Of a stretch of 64,000 bases of DNA, positions 5,697 to 38,090 are shown in pieces. Source of the stretch: a bacterium (GTDB lineage Bacteria > UBA10199 > 2-02-FULL-50-16 > JAJFLM01). The stretch's first letter is position 1, and the number at the start of each line of letters is the position of its first letter. The stretch lies in contig CBDCFN010000016.1 in NCBI GenBank assembly GCA_965216315.1, positions 768,001 to 832,000 of the forward strand, read 5' to 3'. The notes beneath the pieces were generated by a model. That model searched no databases. It had not been told where the DNA came from and saw only the letters and a list, made by a program, of their open reading frames with translations. The position numbers and the translations under genes were made by a program.

Positions 5697-5697
5697 T

Positions 5698-6133: not shown

Positions 6134-8476
6134 TTAAATTTTAGTGCCAGCGACGGGACGGGGGAGGGATAGTTTAGGGAGCCCCAATACTTTCCTCAGT
6201 CGAGGTATCATGGCTTCGAGCCGGCTACTGGTCCGCTGATGCTTGTCTAAGACGGCGTGGAATTCATAAATAAATTCATCGGTAGAATGGAGTTCTTGCT
6301 GTAACATATTGAGCACATCGGCGATCCAGAATAAGGCCCTATAGTGAATGAAGAGGGTATCGGGATCGAGTTGATGAATCGTTTGCTTGTCAAGATGGCG
6401 GCAGTATCGACTGGCGGCGCTCATCCATTCATTGAGTTGCTTACGTAAAAAGTCCGCATATTGTTTCGGTGTATCCGGTGGCTTGGATAGGCCGTTCGCC
6501 TGAGTGCGAAGTTGGCGTAACGTATTCAGTGAGAGCCCATTCCAGCTCGGAGGATAGGCCCTGGGAATATTGGCCGCCTTATCCACGAAAACTGGATAAC
6601 GAGGCTTGATTGCGTTAAGAGCGCGAACTCCTTCAATTAGATCAGGGAGATGATGACGGGTGACAGTATTGAGGCGTTGCCAAAAAAGGCGCCCTAATTC
6701 GGTGCCCTGATGGTGTTCGTTCATCATGGCGCGCAATATGTCGCACACATAAAAGAGTTCCTCTTCGAGGCTTTCAATGTCTTCACTCGTATAGGAATCA
6801 AGTTGGTTCTTTTTATGTTTTTCTAGGTAGAGCATAATGCCAAAAAGCCAGTTGCCGATTCGGTCTTGAATCCAACGTACGTGTTCTTGGTCGGATAAAA
6901 TGATTTCCGGGAGCAGGTGCTGCTCTCGAAAAAAGTCCAGTAGGACTGATTTTGTTTTAGCGTGAAGTTTGTCCCACTCAGGCGGATAAGAGGCCTTTAG
7001 TAACTTTGTCCAGCCTGGATATTCCGGATGCAGCCAAAAACGCACGCGATACTTCTTCTTCTTTTCTTCGCCGTGATATTTAAGAAAGGCCTCGCCGGCA
7101 TGGAGGCCATTGTCGAGCCGAAAATCAACGAGCTCCCAGGCATACCGGATGCGCCGGATTCGACTCAACTCACCCGGAGATAAACGGTGAGCTTTCTCTT
7201 GTAGATACTCAATAAAACGGATGAGCATAGTGTCCCGCGTGATCGTGTCGGCAAAGTCAAAGCCGAAACGGGGCCATATATGGGCCCCCGTATCACTGGC
7301 GCCAAATTCAAGGATGTCGACACCTAGGTGATAGAACAGCGCCATGAATCGTTGCGTCACTTCACGTCCTATACCTTTACCCTGCAACTCCGGATTGGGA
7401 ATTTGAAATCCGTCACCGTAAGCAATCCACGGCTTTCCGGGTTTAGGTGGTGCCGGCAGACAACGACTGAATATGCCGATTTCCTCTCCCGCAGTATTTT
7501 CTATTCTGCCGGTAAAGCGGAGCCCGTCTTCGGGGTAGGGCGAAAGAGTTAATCGGCTGACACGAAAACCGTCGATATCGATATGGCAGGCAGCGTTTAA
7601 GTCTTGCATGGTGATGGATTGGCCGTAACGTTGGGCTGTAAGGCGCTGTAGTTCATTCGGTTGCAAGACTTGCACGGCATCGCGGGCCTGTGGGATCGGC
7701 CGATAGTCTAATGTGAAAATAGGCTCCGGATCGGGGCTGCGACGGAGTCGCTCGAGGGTTCGGTTGATTTCGTTGGCGCCGGCGCGAGCGACGAGCCATT
7801 GAACAGTATTGTCCGTGACTTCACGTGGGTTGTTTGGCTCGGGCAACGAGGGGACTAAATGCTTTGGAATGGGCCCATATCGGACATAGTAACCCTGGCT
7901 GATTAGCCTGCTTGCAATGCGATCTGTTTCGCTGCGTTGAGGAATAAACTGATGCTGCTCTTCACTTCGGCCTGGCCGATCGAGCTGGAACGACCACTTT
8001 TGGAGGAGTTCATGGGCCTGTGGTCCGCGTTGCCAGAGACTGTGGAGAATAGGTCCGAATTGGGTGATCAGATTAGGAGTTCTTTTTAAGGCGAAAAAAG
8101 TATGGGGCCCGGCATCAACGCGGCGCTGCGGACTGATCGTATTAGAAACTTCGTCGTCAGAGACCAAAAACGACACATTTTCTAGCGCTATTTCAAGTTG
8201 TTCACGGTGCTCATGTAATGACGCAATCATTTCTGGCGCTATGTGACTCAGGCTTTCATCGCTCAGGAGATCTATTTCTGCAGCGATGGCATATTGTAGA
8301 TCACTCAGCCCGGCGGAAGTCGCCGCATCAGCAAGTGACGTGAGAGAGATGTACCGATCCAGTTTATGGATGCTGCCGAGGTCGGCGACCATCAGGTCAA
8401 AATTCATCGCGCCGCTCGCGAGCAGGGAGCTGGTCCCGGTTTGCAAACCCAGGCTGAGAGTGTTGAGAGTGAGCAT
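6134..8476 (-). CDS. Orphan protein with GNAT-like core and two C-terminal PPxWxxL helical repeats (array member 1)
   Basis: 780 aa; LQGKGIG...GAHIWPRFGFDF; aligns by eye with 8573..9865 and 10846..12465. Confidence 0.7.
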   Translation of the reverse strand: MLTLNTLSLGLQTGTSSLLASGAMNFDLMVADLGSIHKLDRYISLTSLADAATSAGLSDLQYAIAAEIDLLSDESLSHIAPEMIASLHEHREQLEIALENVSFLVSDDEVSNTISPQRRVDAGPHTFFALKRTPNLITQFGPILHSLWQRGPQAHELLQKWSFQLDRPGRSEEQHQFIPQRSETDRIASRLISQGYYVRYGPIPKHLVPSLPEPNNPREVTDNTVQWLVARAGANEINRTLERLRRSPDPEPIFTLDYRPIPQARDAVQVLQPNELQRLTAQRYGQSITMQDLNAACHIDIDGFRVSRLTLSPYPEDGLRFTGRIENTAGEEIGIFSRCLPAPPKPGKPWIAYGDGFQIPNPELQGKGIGREVTQRFMALFYHLGVDILEFGASDTGAHIWPRFGFDFADTITRDTMLIRFIEYLQEKAHRLSPGELSRIRRIRYAWELVDFRLDNGLHAGEAFLKYHGEEKKKKYRVRFWLHPEYPGWTKLLKASYPPEWDKLHAKTKSVLLDFFREQHLLPEIILSDQEHVRWIQDRIGNWLFGIMLYLEKHKKNQLDSYTSEDIESLEEELFYVCDILRAMMNEHHQGTELGRLFWQRLNTVTRHHLPDLIEGVRALNAIKPRYPVFVDKAANIPRAYPPSWNGLSLNTLRQLRTQANGLSKPPDTPKQYADFLRKQLNEWMSAASRYCRHLDKQTIHQLDPDTLFIHYRALFWIADVLNMLQQELHSTDEFIYEFHAVLDKHQRTSSRLEAMIPRLRKVLGLPKLSLPRPVAGTKI

Positions 8477-8484
8477 TTCATCCC

Positions 8485-8511
8485 TCTTCGGCAGGGGAGA
8501 GAAAAAGTTGC
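8485..8511 (-). promoter_or_regulatory. Shared promoter-like motif GCAAC-N15-CCGAAGA
   Basis: 8 nt upstream of ATG 8476; same spacing as four other copies. Confidence 0.75.
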
Positions 8512-8572
8512 AATTCCGGAATCACCTTTTAGAAATAGCGCATTAAACCCCTGAAACCTAAAGGGATTCGTT

Positions 8573-9865
8573 TTAGGCCGGTGGGGCTGGATTGCGAAAT
8601 AAGGCGCCGAGACGACCACTGTGCGCATAGCGGGCGAGGCTGGCTTCGAGGGCGGTGACCGGGAGTCCTTCCCAGCCCCGAGGGATGAAGAGGTAGTCCC
8701 AGCCCTTAAAACGGCTATCCAGGTGAAAACGCAGATCGTAGGACTCGGCGAGACGTGCGGGGCTGCGGTCGAGCAGGAACTCACGGCCGACCGCGCGATC
8801 GCCGCTCGTGAATTCCGTCAGCTCCCAGGCATGCCGTATGCTAAAGAGTCGCTGCTCGTCGTCCGCTGTCATCGGAATGCCCCGCTCCCGCAAGTGTTCA
8901 GCCAGGCGAATCAACATCACCTCACGCGTCGTCTCATCGGCAAAATCGAAACCCATTCGCGGCCACGCCCAACGCCCGACCTGTTGCGCCGTCAGTGAAA
9001 AATGAGGGTAGTCCAGTTGGTGCAAGAGGCTCAAGTAGCGCTGCGTTGCCCTCCGTCCTATTCCGAGACCGTGATTCTCACTCTTGGTTTGGCGACGGTC
9101 ATCTGCATAATCGAGAGCATAACGGTTGCTGTGGGCGCTACGTGGAAGCTTGTCCGCATCAATGGACATGAAGAAACGATGGAACTCCCCGATGCTTGCT
9201 TCCGTGCTCGAGTCAATGATGCCGGCGAGATCCAGGGAATATTTGCGTAGATAAATACCTAACGATGTCACACTGTATCCGGGGATATCCAGCTGACAGC
9301 CTGCTTGTATTAGATCATAGGGGACGGCGCGACCAAAAAAACGCCAGGCATCTCGTTCGAAACGTGCGGCGTCGAATTTTTCGGGCTTGCCAAGGACTTT
9401 GTATTGGATTGTTTCAATCGGTTCGCAGGTTCGTTGAAGCAAGCTCTGTGTCATCTGTCGCAGGGAAACCTCGGTAAAATGAGATGACGAAGGAGATGCC
9501 GGTTGGGCTTGAGCTTGCCTGAGTCTCGTGGAGACATTTTGATAGCGCTCTAACGGAACACTATCAGTCAAGACAGTTTCCAGTAGAGGGGTCTTGTCTT
9601 CGACAAAGAGGGTGAGTTCTTCGGGATCGGGAAGTCTGGCTTCGACATGGGCGACGATACGGTGGACATGGTCCGCCAAGGCCACGTGGAGGCGACGCAG
9701 ATCGTTGTTGTCATCGATTCCTTCCATCAATGTGATCCCAGCGCGGTACTGATCGATGAGCGAAGCGCTCGCAATCCCATCACGCAGGGGTGTGACGGCC
9801 GAATGAGCAGCGAGGAGGCCCGTGCAATTCAATAGTCCTGTTGAGCTGAGTCCAAAAGTCACCAT
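8573..9865 (-). CDS. Orphan protein with GNAT-like core (array member 2)
   Basis: 430 aa; NHGLGIGRR...VGRWAWPRMGFDFADETTREVMLIRL matches member 1 WPRFGFDFADTITRDTMLIRF. Confidence 0.7.
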   Translation of the reverse strand: MVTFGLSSTGLLNCTGLLAAHSAVTPLRDGIASASLIDQYRAGITLMEGIDDNNDLRRLHVALADHVHRIVAHVEARLPDPEELTLFVEDKTPLLETVLTDSVPLERYQNVSTRLRQAQAQPASPSSSHFTEVSLRQMTQSLLQRTCEPIETIQYKVLGKPEKFDAARFERDAWRFFGRAVPYDLIQAGCQLDIPGYSVTSLGIYLRKYSLDLAGIIDSSTEASIGEFHRFFMSIDADKLPRSAHSNRYALDYADDRRQTKSENHGLGIGRRATQRYLSLLHQLDYPHFSLTAQQVGRWAWPRMGFDFADETTREVMLIRLAEHLRERGIPMTADDEQRLFSIRHAWELTEFTSGDRAVGREFLLDRSPARLAESYDLRFHLDSRFKGWDYLFIPRGWEGLPVTALEASLARYAHSGRLGALFRNPAPPA

Positions 9866-9873
9866 GGAGTGGT

Positions 9874-9900
9874 TTATCGATCATTTATGCGAAAGGTTGT
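9874..9900 (-). promoter_or_regulatory. Shared promoter-like motif ACAAC-N15-TCGATAA
   Basis: 8 nt upstream of ATG 9865. Confidence 0.75.
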
Positions 9901-9923
9901 GGCCTAAACGTGAGATCAAAGTG

Positions 9924-18829: not shown

Positions 18830-19693
18830 ATGTCGGAAGCACCTATCGGTATCATCGGAGGTAGCGGTCTCTATCAAATAGATGCCGTAAAAATTGAAGA
18901 AGAGATCACCGTTGATACGCCTTTTGGGGCACCATCCGATCAGCTTATGCGCGGGACTCTGTCAGGACGCCAAGTCATTTTTCTTGCCCGTCATGGACGT
19001 GGACATCGCATCGCGCCGTCGCAGCTGAATTACCGTGCGAATATCTATGCCCTCAAGCAGCTGGGGGTGGATTATATTATTTCCGTCGGAGCGGTTGGAA
19101 GTATGCGCGAAGAGATTGTGCCCGGACATGTCGTGGTGATCGATCAATTTTTCGATCGAACCCGTGAGCGACCCTCAACTTTTTTTGATGAGGATGTGGT
19201 CGTGCATGTGACTTTTGCCCATCCTGTTTCCGAAAGTCTGCGTCGCATTCTTATTGAGGCTGCAGAGGCGGCGGGGGCGACAGTTCATAAATCGGGGACT
19301 TATCTCTGTATGGAAGGCCCACAGTTCTCGACTCAGGCGGAATCTCACATTTATCGGCAGTGGGGAGTCGATGTGATTGGGATGACCAATTTGCAAGAAG
19401 CCAAGCTCGCACGCGAGGCAGAGATTGCCTATGCGACGCTTGCCATGTCGACGGATTATGACTGCTGGCATGAGGATCACGATGCCGTGACGGTTGATCA
19501 AGTGATTGCTGTCTTGGAACAAAATGCGCATCTTGCGGCAGAGATTATTAAATTGGCTGTACCGAAGGTGCCATCTGAGCCCGACCCTGTTGCGAGCAAT
19601 GCATTGAAAAATGCAATTATTGGAGATAAGGCACTGGTCTCAAAGGAGACAGTTCAAAAATTAAAGCCTATTCTGGGCAAATATTTTTTATAG
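18830..19693 (+). CDS. mtnP: S-methyl-5'-thioadenosine phosphorylase
   Basis: IGIIGGSG, ARHG, EGPQFST, VIGMT, TDYDCW. Confidence 0.95.
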   Translation: MSEAPIGIIGGSGLYQIDAVKIEEEITVDTPFGAPSDQLMRGTLSGRQVIFLARHGRGHRIAPSQLNYRANIYALKQLGVDYIISVGAVGSMREEIVPGHVVVIDQFFDRTRERPSTFFDEDVVVHVTFAHPVSESLRRILIEAAEAAGATVHKSGTYLCMEGPQFSTQAESHIYRQWGVDVIGMTNLQEAKLAREAEIAYATLAMSTDYDCWHEDHDAVTVDQVIAVLEQNAHLAAEIIKLAVPKVPSEPDPVASNALKNAIIGDKALVSKETVQKLKPILGKYFL

Positions 19694-19702
19694 GAGACTT
19701 TT

Positions 19703-20623: not shown

Positions 20624-20626
20624 ATC

Positions 20627-21744: not shown

Positions 21745-21776
21745 TGGCGGGAATACGCTAGTATTTTCGCTTACTT

Positions 21777-26280: not shown

Positions 26281-27077
26281 ATAAACGTAACAAAAGAAAA
26301 CTTCCCTTATTCCTCCTCTTTTCGCTTCTCTTTCATGCCCTCTTAATCCTTTTTATTGCGACCAAGCCAGCTGAACGTGAAGCGGAAAAGCTAGCCCCAT
26401 TAGACGTTGAGATTCTCCAGCCCAAACAGATTGCCGATATACAAAAGCCGAAAGAGCAAAAACGGCCTCAAAAGGCCAAATTTATTGGGCAGTATGACAG
26501 TACGGTCAAGGAAGAACGGGTAGCGGTGACACCGCCGAAAAAGGGGACTCCCAGGCCCCAGCGGGCAATTGAACGGCCGAAGCAAGTAGAGAAACCCGAG
26601 AAAAAACCGGATAAGTTGGCCGCGCTGTTTGCGAAAAAAAAAGAACAGGCACAGAAGAAGAGTTCGGGTAATCGAAAGGCCGCGAAACGTTTTGGCGAAT
26701 TGCCACAGGATTTTTATCCCGATTATAAGATCGGGCCGCACACTTATTTGAATGTACTGCGCTTCCCCGATGTGCAGTACTTTGTGCGGCTTAAACGCAT
26801 TTTTAAGCTGACCTTCAACCCGGTGCCGGTCCTGCGTCAGTATGTCTATGCCAATCAAGTTTCACGTGGCCATGTAGAGGTCGTGCTTGGTGTCGTTGTC
26901 GCCCCGAGCGGCCGGTTAGCCCGTCTCTTTGTGATTCGCGGTTCCGGGTTTGGTAAATACGACCAGGAGGCGCTCAGAACCGTGCGTGATAGTTCCCCTT
27001 TCACAAAGCCACCCGCCAAGTTATTAGGCCCCGACGGTCAGCTCCGCATGAGTTGGACGTTTACGGTTTATTTGTAA
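26277..27077 (+). CDS. TonB/TolA-like energy transducer
   Basis: SLLFH TM motif, K/P-rich linker, C-terminal GSG..YD..AL...SPF..PP. Confidence 0.8.
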   Translation: MNKRNKRKLPLFLLFSLLFHALLILFIATKPAEREAEKLAPLDVEILQPKQIADIQKPKEQKRPQKAKFIGQYDSTVKEERVAVTPPKKGTPRPQRAIERPKQVEKPEKKPDKLAALFAKKKEQAQKKSSGNRKAAKRFGELPQDFYPDYKIGPHTYLNVLRFPDVQYFVRLKRIFKLTFNPVPVLRQYVYANQVSRGHVEVVLGVVVAPSGRLARLFVIRGSGFGKYDQEALRTVRDSSPFTKPPAKLLGPDGQLRMSWTFTVYL

Positions 27078-27081
27078 AAAA

Positions 27082-28566
27082 TTATTTTTCGTAACGGAGC
27101 TTGAGTTCTTTGACGGCCTTGGCTTCGTCTAGTAACCCGATCTGGGTGTTATGAGGTGCAGAATGAACGAGTTCAGGATTACTCGCAGCTTCTTCCGCGA
27201 TCGCGAGCATCGCATCGCAGAAACGATCGATAGCTTTTTTGCTCTCCGTTTCAGTCGGTTCAATCATGAGGGCCCCGGGCACGATTAAGGGGAAGTAGAT
27301 AGTCGGGGGATGAAAGCCATAATCCATCAAACGTTTGGCGATTTGTAAGGTCTTGACGCCATGGGCATTTTGTTTCTTGTCTGAAAAGACGACTTCGTGC
27401 ATCGATTGCTGTTGGTAAGGCAATTCATAGGCATCACTCAAGAGGGCGCGAATATAATTAGCATTCAGTACTGCAAGTTCGGCGACGCGTCTTAGCCCTT
27501 CGGCACCCATTTCAAGGATGTAGGTATAGGCGCGGACGAGGATGCCGAAATTGCCATAGAAAGACTGCAAGCGACCGATGCTCTGTTCGTATCCTTCATT
27601 CCATTTATACTCGTCACCTGCTTTTTCAATGCGAGGAATGGGCAAGAAAGGTTCTAAGACTTTTTTGACGGCGACAGGTCCGGCGCCGGGACCGCCACCC
27701 CCGTGCGGTGTCGTGAAGGTCTTGTGTAGATTCATGTGGAGGACGTCGACGCCCATGTCGCCAATCAATGTTTTGCCAAGGAGTGCGTTGAGGTTGGCGC
27801 CATCACAGTAAACGAGCCCACCGTGTTCGTGGACAATGTCGCAGATTTCCTTGATGTGAGGTTCGAAGATGCCCAAAGTATTCGGGTTGGTCAGCATGAT
27901 CGCTGCGACTTCATCATCGATAACAGCGCGCAGAGCATCTGGGGTCAGAATCCCTTTGGCGCCGGTTTTTATTTCGACAACCTTGTAACCGCTCATGGCG
28001 CAACTGGCTGGGTTCGTGCCGTGCGCGCTATCGGGAATCAATACCTTTTTGCGGGGATTTCCCTGCGTCTCATGGTAGGCGCGTATCATTAAAATGCCCG
28101 CCAATTCGCCTTGGGCGCCGGCAGCCGGTTGGAGCGTGATCGCGTCCATTCCAGTAATGGCGAGGAGGGCTTCTTGTAAGCCGTACATCAGTTCGAGATT
28201 CCCTTGCGCCGTTTCATCGGGTTGTAATGGATGGGCGTGAGCAAAGCCCGTATAAGCGGCAACCTCTTCATTGATCTTCGGGTTATATTTCATCGTGCAG
28301 GAGCCGAGGGGGTAAAAATTAGTATCGATGGAAAAATTCCACTGGGAGAGGCGGGTGTAATGGCGCATGACTTCCGGCTCAGAGACTTCGGGAAGTTTGG
28401 CTTCATCAGTTCGACGCAGTTCTTTGGGAAGAGAGACGTCAATGTCCGCAGAGTTGAAACTGTAGCCGATGCGACCTGGGCGAGAACGTTCAAAAATTAA
28501 GGGCTCGCGCCAACTATGGCCACTCGTTCCCGAAAAGGTGCGCGTCTTAGTCTTGCGCGAGGGCAT
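27082..28566 (-). CDS. gcvPB: Glycine dehydrogenase subunit 2
   Basis: PLGSCTMKYNP, HKTFTTPHGGGGPG. Confidence 0.96.
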   Translation of the reverse strand: MPSRKTKTRTFSGTSGHSWREPLIFERSRPGRIGYSFNSADIDVSLPKELRRTDEAKLPEVSEPEVMRHYTRLSQWNFSIDTNFYPLGSCTMKYNPKINEEVAAYTGFAHAHPLQPDETAQGNLELMYGLQEALLAITGMDAITLQPAAGAQGELAGILMIRAYHETQGNPRKKVLIPDSAHGTNPASCAMSGYKVVEIKTGAKGILTPDALRAVIDDEVAAIMLTNPNTLGIFEPHIKEICDIVHEHGGLVYCDGANLNALLGKTLIGDMGVDVLHMNLHKTFTTPHGGGGPGAGPVAVKKVLEPFLPIPRIEKAGDEYKWNEGYEQSIGRLQSFYGNFGILVRAYTYILEMGAEGLRRVAELAVLNANYIRALLSDAYELPYQQQSMHEVVFSDKKQNAHGVKTLQIAKRLMDYGFHPPTIYFPLIVPGALMIEPTETESKKAIDRFCDAMLAIAEEAASNPELVHSAPHNTQIGLLDEAKAVKELKLRYEK

Positions 28567-29905
28567 TGCCGAGTTTTCTGCTGAAGGTTGCGATTTCTTC
28601 ATCTGTATTCATTTCGGTTACACTTACAAGTAAGTAGTTTTCCAATTGAGGATACCATTGTCTTATGGCGACCCCGCCAAGTATGCCTTCGTTGCGCAGG
28701 GCTTCTAAGAGACTTGCCGGTTCACGGGGGACTTTGATGACAAATTCATTAAAGGTTGCACCGGTGAATGGGAGGCTGATGCCCGGTATCTGCGCGAGCT
28801 GTTGCTTGGCCAGCTCTGATTTCTTGAGATTGTCGGATGCGATATGACGAAAACCGCGGCGGCCGAGGAGCGACAAAGTGATAGTGGCGGCGAGTGCGCA
28901 GAGGCTGACATTTGTGCAGATGTTTGATGTCGCCTTTTCACGCCTTATGTGTTGTTCCCTTGTCGCAAGCGTTAATACGTATCCTCTTTCTCCATTGCAA
29001 TCGACCGTTTCGCCGACGAGACGACCTGGTACTTGCCGCGCGTATTTTTTATGGGTTGCGAATAGACCTAGCGAGGGGCCTCCGTATTGAATGGCATTGC
29101 CGAACGATTGGCCTTCAGCCGTGGCAATATCGGCTCCCATTTCGCCGGGGGACTTGGCGAGCGCTAGGGCCCAAGGTTCAGCTGTACTCGTGATAAGGAG
29201 CGCTCCGGCTTGATGCGTTTGTTCGGCGACATCTTCAAAATTTTCTAAGATGCCAAAAAAGTTAGGGTATCCGACAACGACGCAACTGACATCGTCTGCC
29301 AAGGCCTCACTAAGAGCCTTTCGATCAAGTCGGCCACTTTGACTTTCAAAAGGGACCTCTTCGATCGTGACATCTGAAAAACGTAAGTAGGTGTTAACGA
29401 CTTGGCGATACTCTGGCGGCAAAGTTCGTGCGATGAGAATGCGTCGGCGTTTATTGATACGCATCGCGGTGAGAATGGCTTCGGCGACAGCGCTGGCGCC
29501 ATCGTAATTGGAAGCGTTAGCGATTTCGAGGCCGCAGAGCTCGGAAACCATCGTTTGGAATTCATAGAGGGCCTGAAGGGTTCCTTGGCTCACCTCGGGC
29601 TGATAGGGTGTGTAAGCGGTTGCGAATTCGCTGCGACTTACCAAGGTTTTGACGGCACTCGGGACATAATGTCGATAGGCCCCCGCGCCTAAAAAATTAA
29701 TCCAATCATTTCCGTGCGCATTCCGGCGACTGAGGCGCCTGAGTTCTTCGCGCAATTCCAACTCCGTGTATGGAGGGGGGAGTTGGAGGTTTTCTTTAAG
29801 TTTTAGTTCAGGGGGAATGCAGGTAAAGAGATCATCGATTGATTTGACGCCAATCACCTGCAGCATTTGATCAATGTCATCAGGGGTATGAGGCAGATAG
29901 CGCAT
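28547..29905 (-). CDS. gcvPA: Glycine dehydrogenase subunit 1
   Basis: AYTPYQPEVSQG, TREQHIRREKATSNICTN. Confidence 0.96.
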   Translation of the reverse strand: MRYLPHTPDDIDQMLQVIGVKSIDDLFTCIPPELKLKENLQLPPPYTELELREELRRLSRRNAHGNDWINFLGAGAYRHYVPSAVKTLVSRSEFATAYTPYQPEVSQGTLQALYEFQTMVSELCGLEIANASNYDGASAVAEAILTAMRINKRRRILIARTLPPEYRQVVNTYLRFSDVTIEEVPFESQSGRLDRKALSEALADDVSCVVVGYPNFFGILENFEDVAEQTHQAGALLITSTAEPWALALAKSPGEMGADIATAEGQSFGNAIQYGGPSLGLFATHKKYARQVPGRLVGETVDCNGERGYVLTLATREQHIRREKATSNICTNVSLCALAATITLSLLGRRGFRHIASDNLKKSELAKQQLAQIPGISLPFTGATFNEFVIKVPREPASLLEALRNEGILGGVAIRQWYPQLENYLLVSVTEMNTDEEIATFSRKLGNALAQD

Positions 29906-29910
29906 TAATT

Positions 29911-30300
29911 TTAGACAGTTTCTTCTTTCACGTAAGCTTCATATTCTTCTGCGGTCATGAGTTGATCGAGTTCGTTTTGGTTGAGGATTTCAGCCCGGAT
30001 CAGCCAGCCTTCTCCATAGGGGTCGTCGTTGAGCGTCTCGGGACTGTCTGTGACGGGATCATTGGCTTCGCGGATGATGCCTGTAAAGGGAAGGAAGACA
30101 TCGCTGACTGATTTTACTGACTCGACGACGCCAAAGGCTTCGCCATTTCCGAATTCCTCGCCTTCTTGAGGGAGCTCAACAAAGACAATTTCGCCCAGTT
30201 GATCTTGCGCGTAATCGGTAATGCCAATCAACGCCGTATCACCATCGATACGCAGCCACTCATGCTCTTTGGTATATTTAAGTTCCTCAGGAATATTCAT
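29911..30300 (-). CDS. gcvH: Glycine cleavage system H protein
   Basis: HEW, GITDYAQ, VESVKS lipoyl-Lys. Confidence 0.97.
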   Translation of the reverse strand: MNIPEELKYTKEHEWLRIDGDTALIGITDYAQDQLGEIVFVELPQEGEEFGNGEAFGVVESVKSVSDVFLPFTGIIREANDPVTDSPETLNDDPYGEGWLIRAEILNQNELDQLMTAEEYEAYVKEETV

Positions 30301-30319
30301 AACTGCTTCGAACCCTCCC

Positions 30320-31411
30320 TCAAGCCGCTGGAGTTAAATAAAACGGCTGCTTTACGACCGCTGCTATTCTTTTTTTGCCGCGAATGTCAATGGCAATTTT
30401 AGTGCCTATTTCAGTGGCAGTGCCGGGGAGGTAGCCCGTTCCAATCCCTATATCGAGGGAAGGTGAAAGGGTCCCGCTGACGACATGACCGACAGCCTGA
30501 TCGTCCAGGCATATCGGATAGCCTTGGCGTGGAATGCTTCGATCGGTCATGCGAAAGGCGACAAGGTGGCGCTGAATTCCAGCGGCCTTAACCCGTTGGA
30601 GCGTCGCTTTTCCAATAAAATCATCACCATCCAGTTTCACAATCCAGGCGAGGCCAGCCTCGAAGGGGTTGGTTCGGTCATCGATTTCGTGGCCGTAGAG
30701 AGGATAATTGACCTCGAGGCGCAGCGTGTCTCGAGCCCCTAAGCCACAGGGAAGCAAGCCATGTGGGGACCCGGTCTGGATAAGTTGGTGCCATAGATCC
30801 GTTGCCAGTTGTGCCGGTCCATAAATTTCGAATCCATCTTCACCGGTGTAGCCTGTCCTTGAGATGAGCAGGTCCTGGCCTTGGTACCGGTAAGTCGTGA
30901 ATCGGAAGCGTTCCAATTGAGTTGGAGCCTCATCAAACGCAGTTTGCATGGCGGTGCTGGCTAGAGGGCCCTGAAGTGCGAGTTGGCACCAGGTATCAGA
31001 CTCGTTCCTAACGCTGACGGCTCCGTCACTGTGAGATTGAATCCATTCATAATCCTTGTCGATATTGCCGGCATTGACGCAGATAAGAATTTTTTCGGGG
31101 GTGAGCGGATACACGATTACGTCATCAACAAACGTGCCGTCCGAGGTGAGTAAGGCCGAGTATTGACACTGATTGACTTTAAGCCGTTTGAGATCATTGC
31201 AAGTGAGTCGTTGCGCAGCCGCCAGCGCGTCGGGGCCTTCGATAATGATCTCTCCCATGTGGGAGACATCAAAGAGCCCAAGACGTTTGCGGACGGCGTG
31301 GTGTTCCTCCCGTATGCTTGAGTACTGAACGGGCATTTCCCAGCCGCCGAACTCAACGATGCGGGCGCCGAGTTGTTGGTGTGTTTCAAAGAGAGGAGTA
31401 CGGTTAGCCAT
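30320..31411 (-). CDS. gcvT: Glycine cleavage aminomethyltransferase T
   Basis: [30 protein letters not shown]. Confidence 0.97.
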
Positions 31412-32261
31412 CCACCGTTCTCTTTGCGGCTTCAAGGGTGTTCCACAATAGCATGGCGATTGTCATCGGTCCGACACCCCCGGGGACCGGCGTGATGTAA
31501 GCGGCGCGTTCGGCGCACGACTCAAAATCAACGTCGCCGCAAAGAGTTCCGTCTTCGAGCCGATTGATGCCAACATCTAAGACAACCGCGCCCGCTTTGA
31601 TCCATTCGCCGGGGACCATTTTGGGCCTCCCGACGGCGGCAACAAGTACATCCGCCTGTCTAATCTTGTCGGCCAAGTCTTGGGTGCGGGAATGACATAG
31701 GGTGACAGTTGCGTGACGCTCGAGCAGAAGTAAGGCAGCCGGCTTACCGACAATATTGCTGCGACCCAGAACAACGGCATCCTTGCCGGTCAGATCGTAG
31801 TTAATAGACTCGAGTATGCGAATCAGTCCAAAGGGAGTACAGGGTCGCGGACCGGGGAGTCCTGTCAGTAAACGACCCTGATTGACGGGATGAAAACCAT
31901 CAACATCTTTGTCGGGATCAATAGCCTGAAGAATGCGCTGTTCGTCTAAGTGATCCGGTAAGGGGAGCTGAACGAGAATGCCATGAATCGTACGATCCTT
32001 ATTGAGGCGGTCGATGAGGCTCAGTAAATCCGCTTCGCTGGTCGATGCCGGCAGATCATGTTGCTCGGCGTGAAACCCGGCCTTGGCACAGGCGCGCTCC
32101 TTGTTGCGAACGTAGATCTTAGATGCCTCATTGTCGCCCACGAGGACCACGGCCAGGCCCGGTTTGATAGCGGACTGCTCCAAGAGGGTCGCGGCCTCGC
32201 GACCAATCTCTTCACGAATCTTGAGGGCCAGTGCCTTTCCATCGATGATTTGGGCGGTCAT
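31404..32261 (-). CDS. folD: Methylene-THF dehydrogenase/cyclohydrolase
   Basis: [23 protein letters not shown]. Confidence 0.97.
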
Positions 32262-32434
32262 AAATACTCCGCAAATTCTCCATTACATTACGAAGACGAA
32301 GGGCTTATCGCTACCGTGGCAGCAGAGCTCTGTCAATATTGCCCGAAAAATCGATGGGAACTTGTTTATTTACAGTACATTGAAAATATTATACTTTCAC
32401 GAATTGTCAGTACAGTAAGGGGGAGTACGACGCA

Positions 32435-34063
32435 TTGCGGCGTATACTATTAAAAGTCCTGTTGGTTTTACCGATCCTGCTCGCGTCTCAACCCGTGATG
32501 GCGACTCCGAGCTATAATGGCAATAATCTGGTACCGACGACGGATAACGGTCCCTACCTGAATACGCATTCAACGCGACAATTGAGAAAATATAAATGGA
32601 CGGTCGGAACGACCCTCAATTATGCCCATCGTCCTTTGGAGCTCGAAGGGCCTTCAGGAGGGCGCGTCAGTGGTGTGCTCGAAAACTTATTGGTGATGCA
32701 TCTTCTTGGTGCATTCGGAATCACCGATTGGGTTCAGATTGGTCTCGATGTGCCGATTGCCATCGTTGACCGGACAATTGATACAGCGACGGGTAATCCC
32801 AGCTTTCATACGCGCATGAGCGATATTCGACTCGAAGCCAAATTTCGCCTCTTGGATCCAGACAACCCGGATTATAAGGGGTGGGGAATTGCCGCGATTC
32901 CATTTATTAATTTTCCCACCGGATCGGGTACGCGCTTGGTCGGCAACAAGACCTTTGCGGGCGGCGCTAAGTTAGCCTTTGAATCACCTGACATCAGTGA
33001 TGTCGTCCGGATTGCCCTCAACGTGGGGTATGAAATGCGTGAATCGACCATTCTGTTTGGTACTGAAGTGGATGATTGGTTCATGTATTCTTTAGCTGCC
33101 AACTTCAGGGTTGCCGACTACTTTGAGATCGTTCCGGAAATCTGGGGCAAGACACTCGCCGGTGATATGTTTGAGCGTGAATCTCAAAGCCCATTGGAGT
33201 TGGGAGGCGTCTTTCGGGTTTTTCTCGCCGATAAAAAGTTGGCGCTTGATTTCGGGGGAAGCGGGGGATTGATGTCGGGTGTGGGGGCTCCGGTGTGGCG
33301 CGGTATTCTGAGAATTGCCTATAAGCCGCTGCGTCGCGATAATGAGTCTCAATATGATCTGCCTTTGCCGGTTGAGTTGACGGCCGAAGATTACTATCTA
33401 TTAGCCCAGAAATGTCCGCCGGATCCGGCTGACTTTGATGCAACAAAGCATGACGAAGCGTGTGATAAACTTTACGAACTCCGTGCTCTCCAGGGGCAAT
33501 GTCCCGATCCGGAAGAGTTTGATGCCAGTAGGCATGATGAAGCTTGCGAAAAAATCTATGAGTTACAGGGCTTCGATCATGACGGCGATGCCGTAGCCGA
33601 TTATCTCGATCGCTGTCCGGACCAGCAGGGCCCCATCGAAAATGACGGTTGCCCGACGCATGGAATTGTCGTGCTTGACTGGAGTGAGGGTCGGGTTAAG
33701 TCGGATAAAATCCTTTTTGAATTTAATAGTGCCGATCTAACTCCCGCGTCGCGGGATATTGTGAGGCGCATTGCGGAACAATTGATGGCCCATGTTGATT
33801 TCATCCAGCACATGACAGTCGAAGGCCACACGGATAGCGTTGGTCTCCGCGAATACAATCGAGTGCTTTCCGTCCGGCGGGCCCAGTCCGTTAGGAGTGC
33901 GTTAATCGACTACGGCGTGCCTGCACATAAAATGAATGCGGTCGGTTTTGGCCAATCACGCCCGGCAGTCGGCAATGAAACGGAAGAAGGCCAACAGCAA
34001 AATCGTCGGGTGGAGATTCGCTTTAGGGGGTCGTTGCCGGATTATCTTGGAACGACGCAGTAA
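32435..34063 (+). CDS. OmpA-family outer membrane protein (beta-barrel, Cys/Asp repeats, OmpA_C)
   Basis: Signal peptide; DHDGDAVADYLDRCP; VEGHTD...N..LS.RRA..V; NRRVE. Confidence 0.88.
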   Translation: MRRILLKVLLVLPILLASQPVMATPSYNGNNLVPTTDNGPYLNTHSTRQLRKYKWTVGTTLNYAHRPLELEGPSGGRVSGVLENLLVMHLLGAFGITDWVQIGLDVPIAIVDRTIDTATGNPSFHTRMSDIRLEAKFRLLDPDNPDYKGWGIAAIPFINFPTGSGTRLVGNKTFAGGAKLAFESPDISDVVRIALNVGYEMRESTILFGTEVDDWFMYSLAANFRVADYFEIVPEIWGKTLAGDMFERESQSPLELGGVFRVFLADKKLALDFGGSGGLMSGVGAPVWRGILRIAYKPLRRDNESQYDLPLPVELTAEDYYLLAQKCPPDPADFDATKHDEACDKLYELRALQGQCPDPEEFDASRHDEACEKIYELQGFDHDGDAVADYLDRCPDQQGPIENDGCPTHGIVVLDWSEGRVKSDKILFEFNSADLTPASRDIVRRIAEQLMAHVDFIQHMTVEGHTDSVGLREYNRVLSVRRAQSVRSALIDYGVPAHKMNAVGFGQSRPAVGNETEEGQQQNRRVEIRFRGSLPDYLGTTQ

Positions 34064-34071
34064 AACTTGAC

Positions 34072-34962
34072 TCAATCACAGGTGATGCGGTTGCGCCCGC
34101 TATTTTTAGAGGCGTAGAGGCACTTGTCGGCTCCGCTAATGAGGTCTTCCTCGGTTTCATAGCTGTCTTTGTCAAGAGTCGCTACGCCGACACTGACGGT
34201 TACGGGGATGACCTGACCTTCAAAGACGAATTCGTGTTCTTCGATCAGGCTCCTCAGCCGCTCGCCTAATACTTCGGCGCCTTCTTTGCCCGTATCTTTA
34301 AGAACAATCGTAAATTCTTCGCCCCCGTAACGGGCAAATAAATCTTCATCACGTATGATGGACTGGGCCAGTTTGGTCAGGCGCATCAGTACGAAATCCC
34401 CAGCGGGGTGACCATAAGTGTCATTGACGTTCTTGAAATGATCGATGTCGAACATGATAAGCGAGAGCGGGACTCCTTTGCGTTTTGCAAAACTGAATTC
34501 ACCGCAGAGTCGATCGAGTAAATGACGTTTATTATAAATGCTGGTGAGAGGGTCGAGATGACCCATGTTGTAAAGTTCTTGTTGAGTAGATTCATCGAGC
34601 TTATCGGCATAAATGTATTTAATCATCGTGGAGCTCGATATTTGAATCTTATCTTCATGAGTGAGTGTAAACGTCGTAATACGTTCACCATTCACGTACG
34701 TTCCATTGGTGCTATTAAGGTCCGTTGCTATCGTCTTGCCGCTATTATAATGAAGTTTGAGATGTTTTCGCGAGATGCCTTCGTCGTTGATAACGATGTC
34801 GGCATCTTCAGAGCGACCTAAGACGACGCTTCCCGTCTGCAGGAGTACCATTTTACCGAAGAGGGGCCCTTGCTGAAAGAGGATGTATGGATGCTTCTCT
34901 TGCTCATCGGCCTGAAGTTCAGGAACAGAGGTGACTATCGTATGATCCGTCGTATCATCCAT
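34072..34962 (-). CDS. FHA-domain diguanylate cyclase
   Basis: FHA (GR, SRKH, STNGT) plus RYGGEEF with RxxD I-site. Confidence 0.93.
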   Translation of the reverse strand: MDDTTDHTIVTSVPELQADEQEKHPYILFQQGPLFGKMVLLQTGSVVLGRSEDADIVINDEGISRKHLKLHYNSGKTIATDLNSTNGTYVNGERITTFTLTHEDKIQISSSTMIKYIYADKLDESTQQELYNMGHLDPLTSIYNKRHLLDRLCGEFSFAKRKGVPLSLIMFDIDHFKNVNDTYGHPAGDFVLMRLTKLAQSIIRDEDLFARYGGEEFTIVLKDTGKEGAEVLGERLRSLIEEHEFVFEGQVIPVTVSVGVATLDKDSYETEEDLISGADKCLYASKNSGRNRITCD

Positions 34963-35010
34963 AATGCTAAGGCTCTATCATAGCGGCAAAGCGGCCTGGA
35001 GACAAGTTCA

Positions 35011-36849
35011 CTATTTTCGGAGGGTTGCCCGGATGACGCTGGTTTTACCAGCGAAGATTTTAACGGTCTGCTCCCAGGTCCTGTAGCCGGGGAGCTCAAC
35101 GCGAATCGTGTGTTCGCTGCCGGGTTGCAACCGGGGAAGGCGTAAAGGGCTCGTTCCCTTATCGATGCCATCGATAAAGATTCGCGCTTTCGGTGGTTGA
35201 GAGGTGATGCGTAACGCACCGTAGTTAATGCGTAATTCCGCTTCTATTGTCGTGGGCGTGTCGCCGGACACCTGGGCCTTGCCAGCCCAATAGGTATGAT
35301 TTTTGAGGAAAAGTCCTATGTTGTAGGTCTGGCCAAGTTTTAATTTTTCGAGTTCGGCCGGTGTTTGCAGCCCGGTGTCGCGATCATTGATGAAAATTCT
35401 GGCCCCTGCTGGTTGTGAGCGGATGAGTAGCGTCCCAAATTCGGCAACTGGCGGGGTTGGTTTGGGCACCGGCGTGGGGACGGGCTTGGGTGGTGATACT
35501 ATTTTAATGGGTTTTGGCTGTGTGACCGGTGGTTCCGGTGCCGGTTCTGAATGGAAATACTCAACAACGTGCGGGGCAACCTTGTACCCGGCATAGGCCA
35601 GTGTGGCGAGAAGGACGCCGATCAGGACCCATCGATTCAAAATCATGCGGCGCCACGGGATGCGCCCGAGCCATTGACGCCAGGGAAAGGGTTTGCGTTG
35701 GGGAGTTGGCGCCGGTTCTTCAGGTTCAGGCGCTTCATCTGGCGCAGAGGCTTCGTCATCGGCTTTATCAACGTTTAAATTGTATGTTTCCAATTCGGTT
35801 AGGCGTCTTTGGAGTATGCGTGGGTCCGCGAGTGCGGTCACTTCCATTTCGTTGTCGACAATGGTGGGAGCCTCTTGGGAGATTGTTTGTCCGACGATCG
35901 TTGGTTCTTCATCGGCGCGGTCAGCAAACAAATTATTAAGATAGTCCTGCAGGTTGCGTGGGGCAAAATCAGGGTATCGCTGCACGAGCGTACGGATTAA
36001 ATCGAGTTGAAAATCATGGGCTGATTGGTAGCGATTTTTTTTATTCTTAGTTAAGGCCTTCTTGAGTATCTTATCCACTTCTTTTGGGATATCTTCTCGG
36101 TAGCCTTGCGCCGAAGGGACGCGGCAACGCTTGACGCGTTGGATCGTTTCACGATTGTTTTTTCCTTTAAAGAGGCGTTGGTTCGTTAGTAATTCCCACA
36201 GTATGACCGCGAGCGAAAAGATGTCGGTGCGACCATCCAGCTTTTCTCCACCGACATGCTCGGGAGACATATAGGCGAACTTCCCTTTTACCACTCCCGA
36301 ATCTGTGGTTGAGACCTGGGATGTCGCCTTCGCGATACCAAAGTCGATAATCTTAACCGTTCCGGACCAAGAAATGATGACATTTTGCGGGCTGATGTCG
36401 CGGTGAACGATGTTGAGTGGGTTTCCCCGGCTATCCGTTTTTTGATGCATGTAGGTGAGGCCATTAGCGACCTCCGAGATAATATAGAGGGCGATCGGAA
36501 CCGGCATCCATTCATTGTTTTGGCGTAAGTGGCGTGCGATACGGCTCAGGCTCTCGCCGTCGACATATTCCATTACCATGAAGTAATCATCGTCGATGCG
36601 TCCCAGGTCGAAGACTTGGGCGATATTGCCGTGTGAGAGTTGCACGGCCAGTTTGGCCTCTTGGACCAACATCTCGACGAAATCCTCATCGGCGGCAATC
36701 TGTGGGAGGATGCGTTTAATCACGACCGGTCGTTCCAGCCCACCCGGATCAATGGCCCGGCCCTTGAATATCTCGGCCATGCCCCCTTGGGCGATCTTTT
36801 CGTCGATGACGTATTGCCCTAATTGCTGGTCTTCAGCGGGGAGTCCCAT
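35011..36849 (-). CDS. Membrane Ser/Thr protein kinase with two PEGA domains
   Basis: GGMAE, HRDISPQN, DFG, YMSPE; TM helix; SQP.GA/KARIFI PEGA repeats. Confidence 0.93.
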   Translation of the reverse strand: MGLPAEDQQLGQYVIDEKIAQGGMAEIFKGRAIDPGGLERPVVIKRILPQIAADEDFVEMLVQEAKLAVQLSHGNIAQVFDLGRIDDDYFMVMEYVDGESLSRIARHLRQNNEWMPVPIALYIISEVANGLTYMHQKTDSRGNPLNIVHRDISPQNVIISWSGTVKIIDFGIAKATSQVSTTDSGVVKGKFAYMSPEHVGGEKLDGRTDIFSLAVILWELLTNQRLFKGKNNRETIQRVKRCRVPSAQGYREDIPKEVDKILKKALTKNKKNRYQSAHDFQLDLIRTLVQRYPDFAPRNLQDYLNNLFADRADEEPTIVGQTISQEAPTIVDNEMEVTALADPRILQRRLTELETYNLNVDKADDEASAPDEAPEPEEPAPTPQRKPFPWRQWLGRIPWRRMILNRWVLIGVLLATLAYAGYKVAPHVVEYFHSEPAPEPPVTQPKPIKIVSPPKPVPTPVPKPTPPVAEFGTLLIRSQPAGARIFINDRDTGLQTPAELEKLKLGQTYNIGLFLKNHTYWAGKAQVSGDTPTTIEAELRINYGALRITSQPPKARIFIDGIDKGTSPLRLPRLQPGSEHTIRVELPGYRTWEQTVKIFAGKTSVIRATLRK

Positions 36850-36945
36850 AGAGGCAAAATTATAGGGATAACGTGAATAAATCAATGAATTATGGTAACT
36901 TAGGGGCGCACCTGGAAGGGGATTTGTGCCGATACTTTATTATAT

Positions 36946-36980
36946 TCCCCCTCTCCTAAGCCTCTCCCCGAGGGGAGAGG
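36946..36980. repeat. REP-like palindrome CCTCTCCCC-GA-GGGGAGAGG
   Basis: Perfect inverted repeat preceded by CCCCCTCTCC, in the sctU/flhB 5' region. Confidence 0.6.
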
Positions 36981-37004
36981 TAGGCTAAGGAATAAGAGCG
37001 TTCT

Positions 37005-38090
37005 ATGGCTGAAGAAAAAGGCGGACAGGAAAAAACCGAAGACGCGACGCCCAAGCGGATGCGTGAGGCGCGCAAAAAGGGGCAAGTGGCCAAGAGTAAA
37101 GACCTCGTCACGGTCGCTATCCTGATCATTACCTGCGGGACGATTGCCGTCATGGCGGGGAATATCGGGGGACAGCTGCAAAACTTCCTGGAGATGGCCT
37201 TTGATATTCCTCAGGATGTGCGATCAATTTTTTCCGAACATGTTGGCGTTGTCGGCAAGGCAGGGGTCTTGGTCCTGGCAAAGGCGACCGGCCCGATTTT
37301 ATTGGCGGCCTTTCTGGCGGCGGCGGTGATCGGATACTTGCAGGTCGGCGCGCTTTTTAGCCTCGATCCGCTGATGCCTCAACTCAAGAAACTCAATCCC
37401 ATTGAAGGCCTCAAAAACATGGTGAAGATGCGCGTCTTCATTGAGCTGGTCAAAAACCTGATCAAGGTTTCGGCGATTATGTTTCTCGCCTTTCTTGCGA
37501 TAAGGAAATATCTACGCCCGTTCCTTCTGACGACAACGACACCTATTGATGAAGGCATCAAAGTAGGTGGCTTGATTCTCTTATATTTTTTGGCGCTCGT
37601 GTTTATTGTTTTTATCTTGGTCGCGGTAGCAGACATCATGCTGCAGAAAAAAGAACATGCGAAAAACCTTAAAATGACCAAAGACGAGGTGAAGCGCGAG
37701 TATAAGGAGGATGAAGGCGATCCATTAATTAAGGGCCAACGGAAGCAATTGCATCGTGAGATGGCTATGAGTGATGTCGCCCAACAAGTTTCTAAATCGG
37801 ATGTTGTCGTCACGAATCCGACGCACATAGCTATAGCGATTAAGTATGATGCTGCCGAAATGATTGCGCCGGAGATTATGGCGAAAGGGCAGCGACTTTA
37901 TGCCCAACGCATTCGCGAAATAGCTGAGCAGCAGGACATTCCTATCATGCGCAACATTCCCTTGGCATGGGCCCTCATTGAGCTAGAGATCGGCGATGAA
38001 ATCCCCGAAGATCTCTATCAGGCCATTGCGGAGGTGCTGGCCTTTGTCTACCGGCTCAAGGCCGAAAAAGAGCGTGCCCAATACCTTTAA
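37005..38090 (+). CDS. Type III export switch protein, SctU/FlhB family
   Basis: EKTEDATPKR, KMTKDEVKREYKEDEGDP, NPTH autocleavage motif, IPEDLYQAIAEVL. Confidence 0.93.
   Translation: MAEEKGGQEKTEDATPKRMREARKKGQVAKSKDLVTVAILIITCGTIAVMAGNIGGQLQNFLEMAFDIPQDVRSIFSEHVGVVGKAGVLVLAKATGPILLAAFLAAAVIGYLQVGALFSLDPLMPQLKKLNPIEGLKNMVKMRVFIELVKNLIKVSAIMFLAFLAIRKYLRPFLLTTTTPIDEGIKVGGLILLYFLALVFIVFILVAVADIMLQKKEHAKNLKMTKDEVKREYKEDEGDPLIKGQRKQLHREMAMSDVAQQVSKSDVVVTNPTHIAIAIKYDAAEMIAPEIMAKGQRLYAQRIREIAEQQDIPIMRNIPLAWALIELEIGDEIPEDLYQAIAEVLAFVYRLKAEKERAQYL

Follow-up and report, generated by a model that had tools for sequence, protein, structure and literature searches.

The described systems closest to the one examined here are (i) the needle-less, non-flagellar type III secretion system (T3SS) of the 'Myxo' group, (ii) the FliA regulon of Bdellovibrio bacteriovorus, (iii) the HrpL system of Pseudomonas syringae, and (iv) the flagellar class 2/class 3 hierarchy. 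The locus in question lies in a 64,000-nucleotide stretch of bacterial DNA (the window; positions 768,001 to 832,000 of contig CBDCFN010000016.1, assembly GCA_965216315.1) from the 2.96-Mb, 98.3% complete genome of an uncultured organism, and consists of five genes (A-E) whose products start with an uncharged peptide leader, the promoter that they share, and a lone sctU gene. In P. syringae, the alternative sigma factor HrpL is encoded in the T3SS cluster and serves a two-block promoter before dispersed effector genes; HrpL is an extracytoplasmic function (ECF) sigma factor with a different box, and the T3SS of this organism has a pilus and a secretin. Its effector N-termini are Ser-rich, devoid of early acidic residues, and aliphatic at positions 3-4, which are also the rules for type III signals at large, and the N-terminal signal of a type III substrate is disordered, about 20-30 residues long, and rich in Ser/Thr. 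To our knowledge, Hop signals share no conserved motif, and charged residues are not fully excluded from them. In flagellar systems, sigma-28 drives the late export substrates (class 3), and the apparatus genes are not under a sigma-28 promoter.

The 'Myxo' group of non-flagellar T3SSs is described, in the accessible part of the source, as needle-less and secretin-less (Abby & Rocha 2012, PMC3459982). The T3SS* of Myxococcus is required for prey lysis, and the available text of the two reports speaks of its cargo only as 'potential' effectors (PMC12075869, PMC12428579). In B. bacteriovorus, the attack-phase promoter TTAAG-N16-CCGATA is found at 92 of 140 attack-phase promoters, and the available text of that paper does not use the word 'leaderless' (Karunker et al. 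2013, PMC3627812).

Genes A-D of the window are arranged head to tail on the minus strand, while E lies on the plus strand. As the original prediction from the bare DNA had it, each product begins with at least 22 residues free of Asp, Glu, Lys, and Arg (26, 27, 37, 34, and 24 residues in A-E), the patches LLASG, LLAAHS, LLAASSG, MLASSG, and ALASAA are all present, and the basic n-region of a Sec signal is absent, there being no Lys or Arg near the start. Directly upstream of each gene stands a CAAC-N16-CGA(T/A)(A/G)A site, scoring 18.7-22.5 with a position weight matrix (PWM), so that the proposed shared promoter is found before all five as a site that, by its sequence, belongs to the sigma-28 family. 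The SctU/FlhB gene that had been placed at 37005 is there and intact. The features are as follows.

6134-8476, minus strand: gene A, 780 amino acids; 26-residue uncharged leader coded at 8399-8476
8484-8512, minus strand: promoter of A, TGCAAC...CCGAAGAG, with CGA 14 nt before the ATG; PWM 22.3; leaderless mRNA predicted
8573-9865, minus strand: gene B, 430 amino acids; 27-residue leader (9785-9865), N-terminal helical domain, predicted GNAT-fold domain
9873-9901, minus strand: promoter of B; PWM 22.5; leaderless geometry
9924-10775, minus strand: gene C, 283 amino acids; 37-residue leader (10665-10775); possibly a GNAT-like core
10785-10813, minus strand: promoter of C; PWM 19.1; leaderless geometry
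10846-12465, minus strand: gene D, 539 amino acids; 34-residue leader (12364-12465); divergent paralog of A and B
12475-12503, minus strand: promoter of D; PWM 18.7; leaderless geometry
16222-16250, plus strand: promoter of E; PWM 20.6; about 30 nt of 5' leader follow, with AGGAG as Shine-Dalgarno sequence
16280-16876, plus strand: gene E, 198 amino acids; 24-residue leader (16280-16351); orphan
37005-38090, plus strand: sctU (FlhB/YscU family); no second copy found in the genome; other apparatus genes 445 kb away

The leader extends far beyond the window. Among the 2,440 open reading frames (ORFs) of at least 100 amino acids called with a crude ORF finder of our own, 149 start with at least 20 uncharged residues. 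An ungapped motif search on 145 sequences (165 ORFs with at least 18 uncharged residues, less 20 excluded for a hydrophobic, membrane-like stretch) converged on x-x-x-x-[LVA]-L-A-[AS]-[SGA], with the L in 99/145, the A in 106/145, and the L-A pair mostly at residues 15-22. With the start codon allowed to shift within the first 40 codons, motif matches of at least 10 bits number 111 at N-termini vs 15 internally, and those of at least 8 bits 149 vs 48, in an internal search space far larger than the N-terminal one. The looser set takes in some membrane proteins: the Na+/H+ exchanger at 14315-16099 of the window is a false positive at this threshold, and ATP synthase subunit c is a clear false positive in the leader set. 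Once motif-bearing genes are collected, the leader bias anticipated for them thus holds genome-wide, in 111-149 genes.

Relative to the proteome, leaders are enriched in Ser (2.6x), Thr (1.9x), Ala (1.8x), and Leu (1.7x) and contain no Asp, Glu, Lys, or Arg. The motif is written with all synonymous codon families (Leu as TTG/CTG/CTC/CTT/TTA, Ser as AGT/AGC/TCN, and Ala with all four codons), which points to selection on the peptide and not on the RNA. Peak 10-residue hydropathy is 1.63+/-0.34 in leaders, against 2.91+/-0.30 in Sec-like signals and 1.60 in the proteome, and exceeds 2.4 in 2/111 leaders. A transmembrane-like segment occurs in 15/111 leader proteins vs 678/2,440 of the proteome, leaving 96/111 without any hydrophobic segment. 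With no Lys or Arg and a hydropathy at proteome level, the leader is not a Sec signal. Its composition, together with the disorder at the start of the B model, fits the rules for type III signals given above. A separate arrangement is seen in LamG-domain paralogs at C16:444170-456124 (minus strand; coordinates prefixed C16 lie outside the window), where an N-terminal uncharged leader of L-L-A-S type is followed 40-70 residues later by a classical lipoprotein signal, its n-region basic and its lipobox of the G-C type. None of the proposed readings accounts for this dual signal.

Genome-wide, 85 sites upstream of 84 leader genes give the consensus CGCAACTTTT-N10-GCCGATAAG. In the form GCAACTTT-N11-GCCGATAA, the promoter comprises an 8-nt -35 block, 11 nt, and the -10 element GCCGATAA. 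The -10 block equals the FliA (sigma-28) consensus; the layout presumably matches that of the E. coli FliA promoter, and the -35 block differs from what we take to be the E. coli type, TAAAGTTT. A first regular expression with a spacer of 15 gave 311 matches in the genome vs 106-212 for eleven other spacers. The PWM finds 293 sites scoring at least 14 vs 33 in a codon-shuffled control; the count of 293 is inflated by about 20 through repeat artefacts, namely weak matches (about 14.3-14.4) in the repetitive coding region of a giant TSP3-like acidic-repeat protein at C16:684718-691441 (plus strand).

The distance from promoter to the start of the first long ORF peaks sharply at 13-17 nt genome-wide, and 113 of the 274 promoter-bearing genes have leaderless geometry. 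In A-D, the CGA lies 14-16 nt ahead of the ATG and no Shine-Dalgarno sequence is present; on this spacing, their transcripts are predicted to start at or next to the ATG, and transcripts should be leaderless wherever the promoter geometry fits. Four sequencing runs, all from one study, contain the DNA, and no RNA run is listed for it. A further strong sigma-28-type site within the window (39270-39298, minus strand; PWM 17.5) lies antisense in rpsB and is directed at the ybaK-like gene and sctU; it may be a chance match or an antisense promoter.

Leader and promoter are tightly associated. A site scoring at least 14 within 150 nt precedes 79/111 leader genes vs 103/2,329 others (odds ratio 53, Fisher p ~1e-70), with a PWM that was trained on the upstream regions of leader genes. 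Those 79 genes divide into 40 with leaderless geometry, 29 with a 5' leader of 19-60 nt, and 10 with a longer one. Read from the side of the promoter, the relation is looser: of the 274 promoter-bearing genes, at least 120 encode a product with the leader (several of the misses plainly start at a later ATG with a leader), and those without it include lipoproteins and Sec-signal proteins. Some 250 promoters make up the broad programme marked in this way, and leader proteins account for about half of it. The shared promoter first proposed is upheld, but not as one specific to leader genes.

The genome encodes a type III apparatus that, judged by gene content, looks functional. At C16:339-360.5 kb, about 430 kb from the window, lie SctV, J, L, N, O, P, Q, R, S, and T together with FliG-, FliM-, and FliO-like proteins; SctV, SctJ, SctN, and SctR are single in the genome. 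The order is SctV, two FHA/YscD-like proteins, TPR proteins, SctJ, two small ORFs, the sigma factor, a 162-amino-acid ORF, FliG-like, SctL, SctN, SctO, FliK/SctP-like, FliM-like, FliN-like, FliO, and SctR, S, and T, which is the flagellar order fliF-G-H-I-J-K-M-N-O-P-Q-R with a sigma gene inserted. All five export gate proteins (SctR, S, T, U, and V) are above the cut-offs of PF00813, PF01313, PF01311, PF01312, and PF00771, respectively, and the ATPase SctN scores 625.8 bits with TIGR01026. The sorting platform and inner ring are represented by FliH/SctL, YscO-like, FliK/HpaP, FliM/FliN, YscJ_FliF, and FHA+YscD_cpl proteins.

The detached SctU carries the NPTH self-cleavage motif and scores 376.8 bits with PF01312, 357.1 with TIGR01404 (SctU; cut-off 358), and 328.8 with TIGR00328 (FlhB; cut-off 349). 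Its neighbourhood, kinase-sctU-ybaK-rpsB-tsf, is kept in a related metagenome-assembled genome (MAG) designated Deltaproteobacteria bacterium, at 75% identity; a scan of a genome collection with SctU matched one relative. Just upstream of sctU, at 34072-36885 (minus strand), are a diguanylate cyclase with FHA and GGDEF domains and a PEGA-domain Ser/Thr kinase; the kinase-sctU adjacency is kept in the related MAG, and FHA and PEGA domains occur in the T3SS cluster as well. The 'dispersed' system of the original prediction is therefore dispersed in sctU alone, all other apparatus genes being in one cluster. The absence of any further T3SS genes would have refuted the prediction; the genome does hold them (a complete export gate, ATPase, and sorting platform, at C16:339-360.5 kb apart from sctU).

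A classical injectisome is not what these genes describe. The best match to the needle protein SctF in the genome is 14.1 bits with PF09392 (E 0.14, cut-off 29.4), short needle proteins being easily missed, and no dedicated secretin SctC was found, the genome having just two PF00263 matches. One of these, a 988-amino-acid secretin, was considered as SctC and rejected, as it is the GspD of a complete gspC-M type II secretion system (T2SS) cluster; the other is a 253-amino-acid ORF at the cut-off (27.6 bits), far from the T3SS cluster. The T2SS cluster itself (C16:970011-984801) reads gspC-D-E-F-G...J-K-L-M, with an unusually long GspD, and follows a PilS-like histidine kinase. It is conceivable that this GspD, the only large secretin in the genome, is the outer-membrane partner of the needle-less T3SS. 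No flagellin (PF00669) matched in the genome. A Tad/Kil partner was not found, the single PF00437 (T2SSE) ATPase above the cut-off in the genome being the GspE of the T2SS. Searches of the genome for two other export routes found no TssC sheath protein of a type VI secretion system and no match to the C39 peptidase (PF03412) of double-glycine export.

The sigma factor of the cluster is the best FliA/WhiG match among five in the genome, with 133.5 bits for TIGR02479, short of the 189.6 required of an equivalog. A FlgM-like anti-sigma factor was not identified; the 162-amino-acid ORF after the sigma gene, a possible FlgM-like protein, has no family, and a complex prediction of the two scored 0.01. 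Strong promoter sites across C16:339-364.4 kb are confined to the two genes directly after sctT (717 and 491 amino acids), both leader-bearing. Some 5 kb upstream of sctV, an unrelated ORF is preceded by a further site (16.5 bits), and no apparatus gene has a PWM site. The 717-amino-acid protein (C16:360590-362743, plus strand), the first after sctT, has a HEAAH zinc-protease-like motif and no Pfam match; its orthologs in two genomes of the same family retain leader and promoter, and it was found only in the family of the window's genome. Both proteins were considered as translocon-like and rejected, since neither has a hydrophobic segment and the first carries HEAAH.

Candidate cargo was surveyed through the leader set: 84 of the 149 genes lay in fetched loci, and the 80 products of at most 1,200 amino acids were searched with Pfam. 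No family was found for 51/80. Among the remaining 29 are kinases (two hybrid histidine and two Ser/Thr kinases) and two helicases, one of which is fused to sigma-70 region 4. PFK, RtcB, cysteine dioxygenase, a class V aminotransferase, a methyltransferase, an acyltransferase, a diacylglycerol-kinase-like protein, and an AMP-binding enzyme also occur, as do FHA, HEAT, and TPR proteins. For PFK, RtcB, and Aminotran_5, the leader copies are extra, divergent paralogs next to leader-free housekeeping copies, and the leader sits on a 35-85-residue N-terminal extension before the domain. Most leader proteins are thus either orphans or additional copies of enzymes that depend on nucleotides.

The products of A-E have no Pfam or NCBIfam match. 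A, B, and D are paralogs (D vs A, phmmer 2.3e-10), with two more copies elsewhere in the genome. The A product runs from leader through a helical region and a putative GNAT-like core to a long C-terminal helical region. A profile of the A family finds 397 proteins at E <= 0.001 among 1.84 billion; some members are giant multi-copy proteins, and the nearest members, two of them from the sister genus G001, also start uncharged. A word-indexed protein search with A returned A itself and one fragment, 43% identical, and a metagenome scan with A as query gave no match; the 15 matches of 23 residues in the P0005 metagenome scan, on unrelated contigs, were judged spurious. C has two paralogs elsewhere in the genome, both with leaders. 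E has no paralog in the genome and no family match, and is unrelated to the A family; compared with the A-family profile, C and E both come out as unrelated (probability 0.2 and 1.9).

Structure prediction points to a GNAT-like fold for B, and by homology for A; for D, the same is predicted by paralogy only. The AlphaFold2 model of B (pLDDT 87, pTM 0.86) has disordered residues 1-19, then a helical domain and an alpha/beta domain. Its top Foldseek matches are nearly all GNAT acetyltransferases, with a probability of about 1.0 but E of 0.014-0.04 and a target TM-score of 0.33-0.47. The predicted core of B, and by homology that of A, superposes on GNAT enzymes that include, among the PDB matches, the Legionella effector VipF, and has a G-x-G-I-G-R-R stretch at the position of acetyl-CoA binding; we take this to be the GNAT acetyl-CoA-binding motif. 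A and B gave no GNAT match in a Pfam scan, and they have large extra helical domains. A weak lead from the Atlas, where 20% of one cluster has PF00583, agrees with a GNAT assignment. For C, the model is poor (pLDDT 52.6), and its best fold matches, acetyltransferases with E of at least 0.018, are not counted as evidence.

These parts may be assembled as follows. The five genes would belong to a set of about 110-150 genes with a detachable N-terminal module of some 20-40 uncharged residues, and this module would be the export signal of late substrates. The route would be a flagellum-derived, needle-less type III apparatus of which the sctU of the window is one part, and the FliA-like sigma factor of the cluster would read the cargo promoter after flagellar logic, with the transcript starting at the ATG in about half of the cargo genes. 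The cargo would consist of orphans and of extra ATP/GTP- or CoA-using enzymes (GNAT-like A/B, kinases, helicases, RtcB, and PFK), which only make sense within a cytoplasm; that of a host or prey cell is the most likely one. This reading is suggested by (i) the composition and disorder of the leader and its lack of Sec character, (ii) a cargo that is extra-copy, orphan-rich, and nucleotide-dependent, (iii) the sigma gene in the cluster and the leader genes next to sctT, and (iv) the outcome of the searches with TssC and C39, which left no other candidate route. We put the chance that the leader proteins are T3SS cargo at about even. The stronger formulation, in which the leader is the address label of a needle-less, secretin-less T3SS on more than 100 proteins (about 5% of the proteome), with a sigma factor of its own and largely leaderless mRNAs, is offered tentatively, as a possibility that is on balance doubtful.

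The distribution of these elements bears on this reading. Thirty relatives were searched, from 17 families of one class and with genomes of 1.6-3.7 Mb. SctV and the sigma factor occur in 30/30 and lie on one contig in 13/30, and the promoter-plus-ATG pattern has 76 occurrences in 24/31 genomes vs 2 for the reversed control, and 78 vs 0 in five chosen genomes. Leaders were sampled at 1-7 genes per relative. In the sister genus G001, 5/6 sampled genes have a peptide leader. Outside the family of the window's genome, N-termini of promoter genes are poor in Lys and Arg (1.71 vs 3.03 in residues 2-25, p ~1e-5, the background being the window's genome) and richer in Ser/Thr. Three A-family homologs from one other-family genome start with 18-24 uncharged residues and have no L-L-A-S motif; two show leaderless promoter geometry and the third a longer 5' leader. 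We read this as a loose, class-wide N-terminal bias that became strict and motif-bearing in one family.

Several findings weigh against export by the T3SS. Nothing ties the leader to the apparatus physically, and the link is circumstantial, as the original prediction itself had it. No needle, secretin of its own, or translocon-like protein was found, so that no conduit into another cell is visible in the genome. The T3SS, the sigma factor, and the promoter are class-wide, whereas sightings of the strict leader are limited to one family: of 20 genes with leaderless promoters sampled from four genomes outside it, 2 have at least 18 uncharged residues, and in another sampling no real ORF outside the family does. 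About half of the promoter-bearing genes are leader-free, which speaks for co-regulation with a broad programme and not for secretion itself. Hybrid histidine kinases with receiver domains are odd cargo, and the LamG paralogs, with a leader and then a lipoprotein signal, do not fit T3SS export. Finally, classical type III signals have no motif of the conserved kind found in the leader, which could be recognized by another receptor.

Alternatively, the leader may be a sorting or control tag independent of the T3SS, with the sigma-28 programme marking a life-cycle phase like the Bdellovibrio attack phase; the tag might then be a signal for a still-unknown export route, serve polar or membrane localisation, or be a recognition site for a protease or chaperone. 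The motif, the restriction of the strict leader to one family within a class-wide T3SS, the many leader-free genes behind the same promoter, and the LamG proteins with both signals all suit such a tag, as does the cytoplasmic type of the hybrid histidine kinases, PFK, and RtcB. In the available text, Bdellovibrio FliA likewise runs a broad attack-phase programme without an injectisome (PMC3627812). This explanation nevertheless has no candidate machinery among the routes searched (no TssC, no C39 peptidase). Extra divergent copies with N-terminal extensions fit exported paralogs better than phase-specific housekeeping, both genes next to sctT are leader-bearing, and the leader composition matches type III signals. 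We judge it unlikely, if well worth keeping in mind.

The third explanation takes the leader for an atypical Sec-related element, either a weak signal peptide without a basic n-region or an extension acting before Sec export, comparable to the extended signal peptide region of autotransporters. The L-L-A-S/A-S/G patch does resemble the end of a signal peptide or a Cys-free lipobox, and in the LamG paralogs the leader precedes a true lipoprotein signal. A hydropathy at the proteome average and far under Sec-like values (2/111 above 2.4), leaders with no basic residue, the 96/111 proteins with no hydrophobic segment, and domains that require ATP, GTP, or acetyl-CoA, which are absent from the periplasm, make this explanation quite improbable. 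That the bias is a by-product of leaderless mRNA translation, a constraint on first codons with no role as a protein signal, would suit the 40/79 promoter-bearing leader genes predicted leaderless but is largely refuted, and has next to no probability left, given the 39/79 with 5' leaders, often with a Shine-Dalgarno sequence (E is an example), a motif whose amino acids are kept while synonymous codons vary (both AGY and TCN code for its Ser), a bias spanning 20-40 codons, and the unbiased leaderless genes behind the same promoter in other families of the class.

Two further loci of the window are of note. At 57991-60573 (minus strand), an 860-amino-acid acidic protein with RTX calcium-binding repeats and a TSP3 repeat has a start, MMRINSNIGTQNAQ, that looks like a flagellin start; upstream of its gene is TGGCAC-N5-TTGCA, which we take to be a canonical sigma-54 promoter. 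At 4004-5846 (minus strand), an MbnB/TglH/ChrH (DUF692) enzyme (310 bits) adjoins DUF2063/NGO1945-like and YceI-like proteins; this is probably the usual pair of a system modifying ribosomally synthesized and post-translationally modified peptides (RiPPs).

If the leader is an export label, the candidate substrates that it supplies number more than 100, for a class of T3SS whose cargo is only 'potential' even in Myxococcus. It would also offer a short peptide suited to reporter fusions, and with it a promoter/sigma pair open to in vitro tests. Some features are unusual whatever the answer: a conserved peptide motif in an apparent type III signal, about 250 promoters in a sigma-28 regulon of a genome where no flagellin gene was found, and about 100 genes with a promoter so close that the mRNA should start at the ATG. 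A literature search found no description of this combination of leader, promoter, and T3SS, most subscription journals and supplements lying outside its scope.

By gene content, the apparatus resembles the needle-less T3SS* of Myxococcus xanthus and its 'Myxo' group, as far as the available text describes them: both have an export apparatus, an ATPase, and a sorting platform, no secretin, needle, or translocon was found here, FHA-domain proteins are in the cluster, and the bearer is deltaproteobacterium-like. Unlike the Myxococcus T3SS*, which is described as working with a Tad-like Kil system, no Tad/Kil partner was found here, the gene order is flagellar, the sigma gene is within the cluster, and sctU is detached. 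The Bdellovibrio FliA regulon, again going by the available text, shares a sigma-28-type promoter with a CCGATA -10 element, a similar spacing, and a large non-flagellar gene set. It differs in that here no flagellin was found, the -35 element is GCAAC and not TTAAG, the sigma gene is in the T3SS cluster, many transcripts are predicted to be leaderless, and a peptide leader is common to half of the products.

The HrpL system of P. syringae is matched in its sigma gene within the T3SS cluster, its two-block promoter before dispersed genes (here the leader genes), and its Ser-rich N-termini. Unlike in P. syringae, the promoter is of the sigma-28 type, the leader is wholly uncharged and bears a motif, and no secretin of the system's own was found. 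Flagellar class 2/class 3 logic is recognizable in the apparatus genes without a PWM site and the leader genes after sctT with one; unlike in flagellar class 3 systems, no FlgM-like anti-sigma factor was identified in the genome. The parts are of known kinds, namely a type III apparatus, a sigma-28 promoter, and an N-terminal signal, and it is their combination that looks new: in a genome with no flagellin found, a needle-less T3SS is joined by sigma-28 promoters, often with predicted leaderless mRNAs, and by a motif-bearing uncharged leader on about 5% of the proteome.

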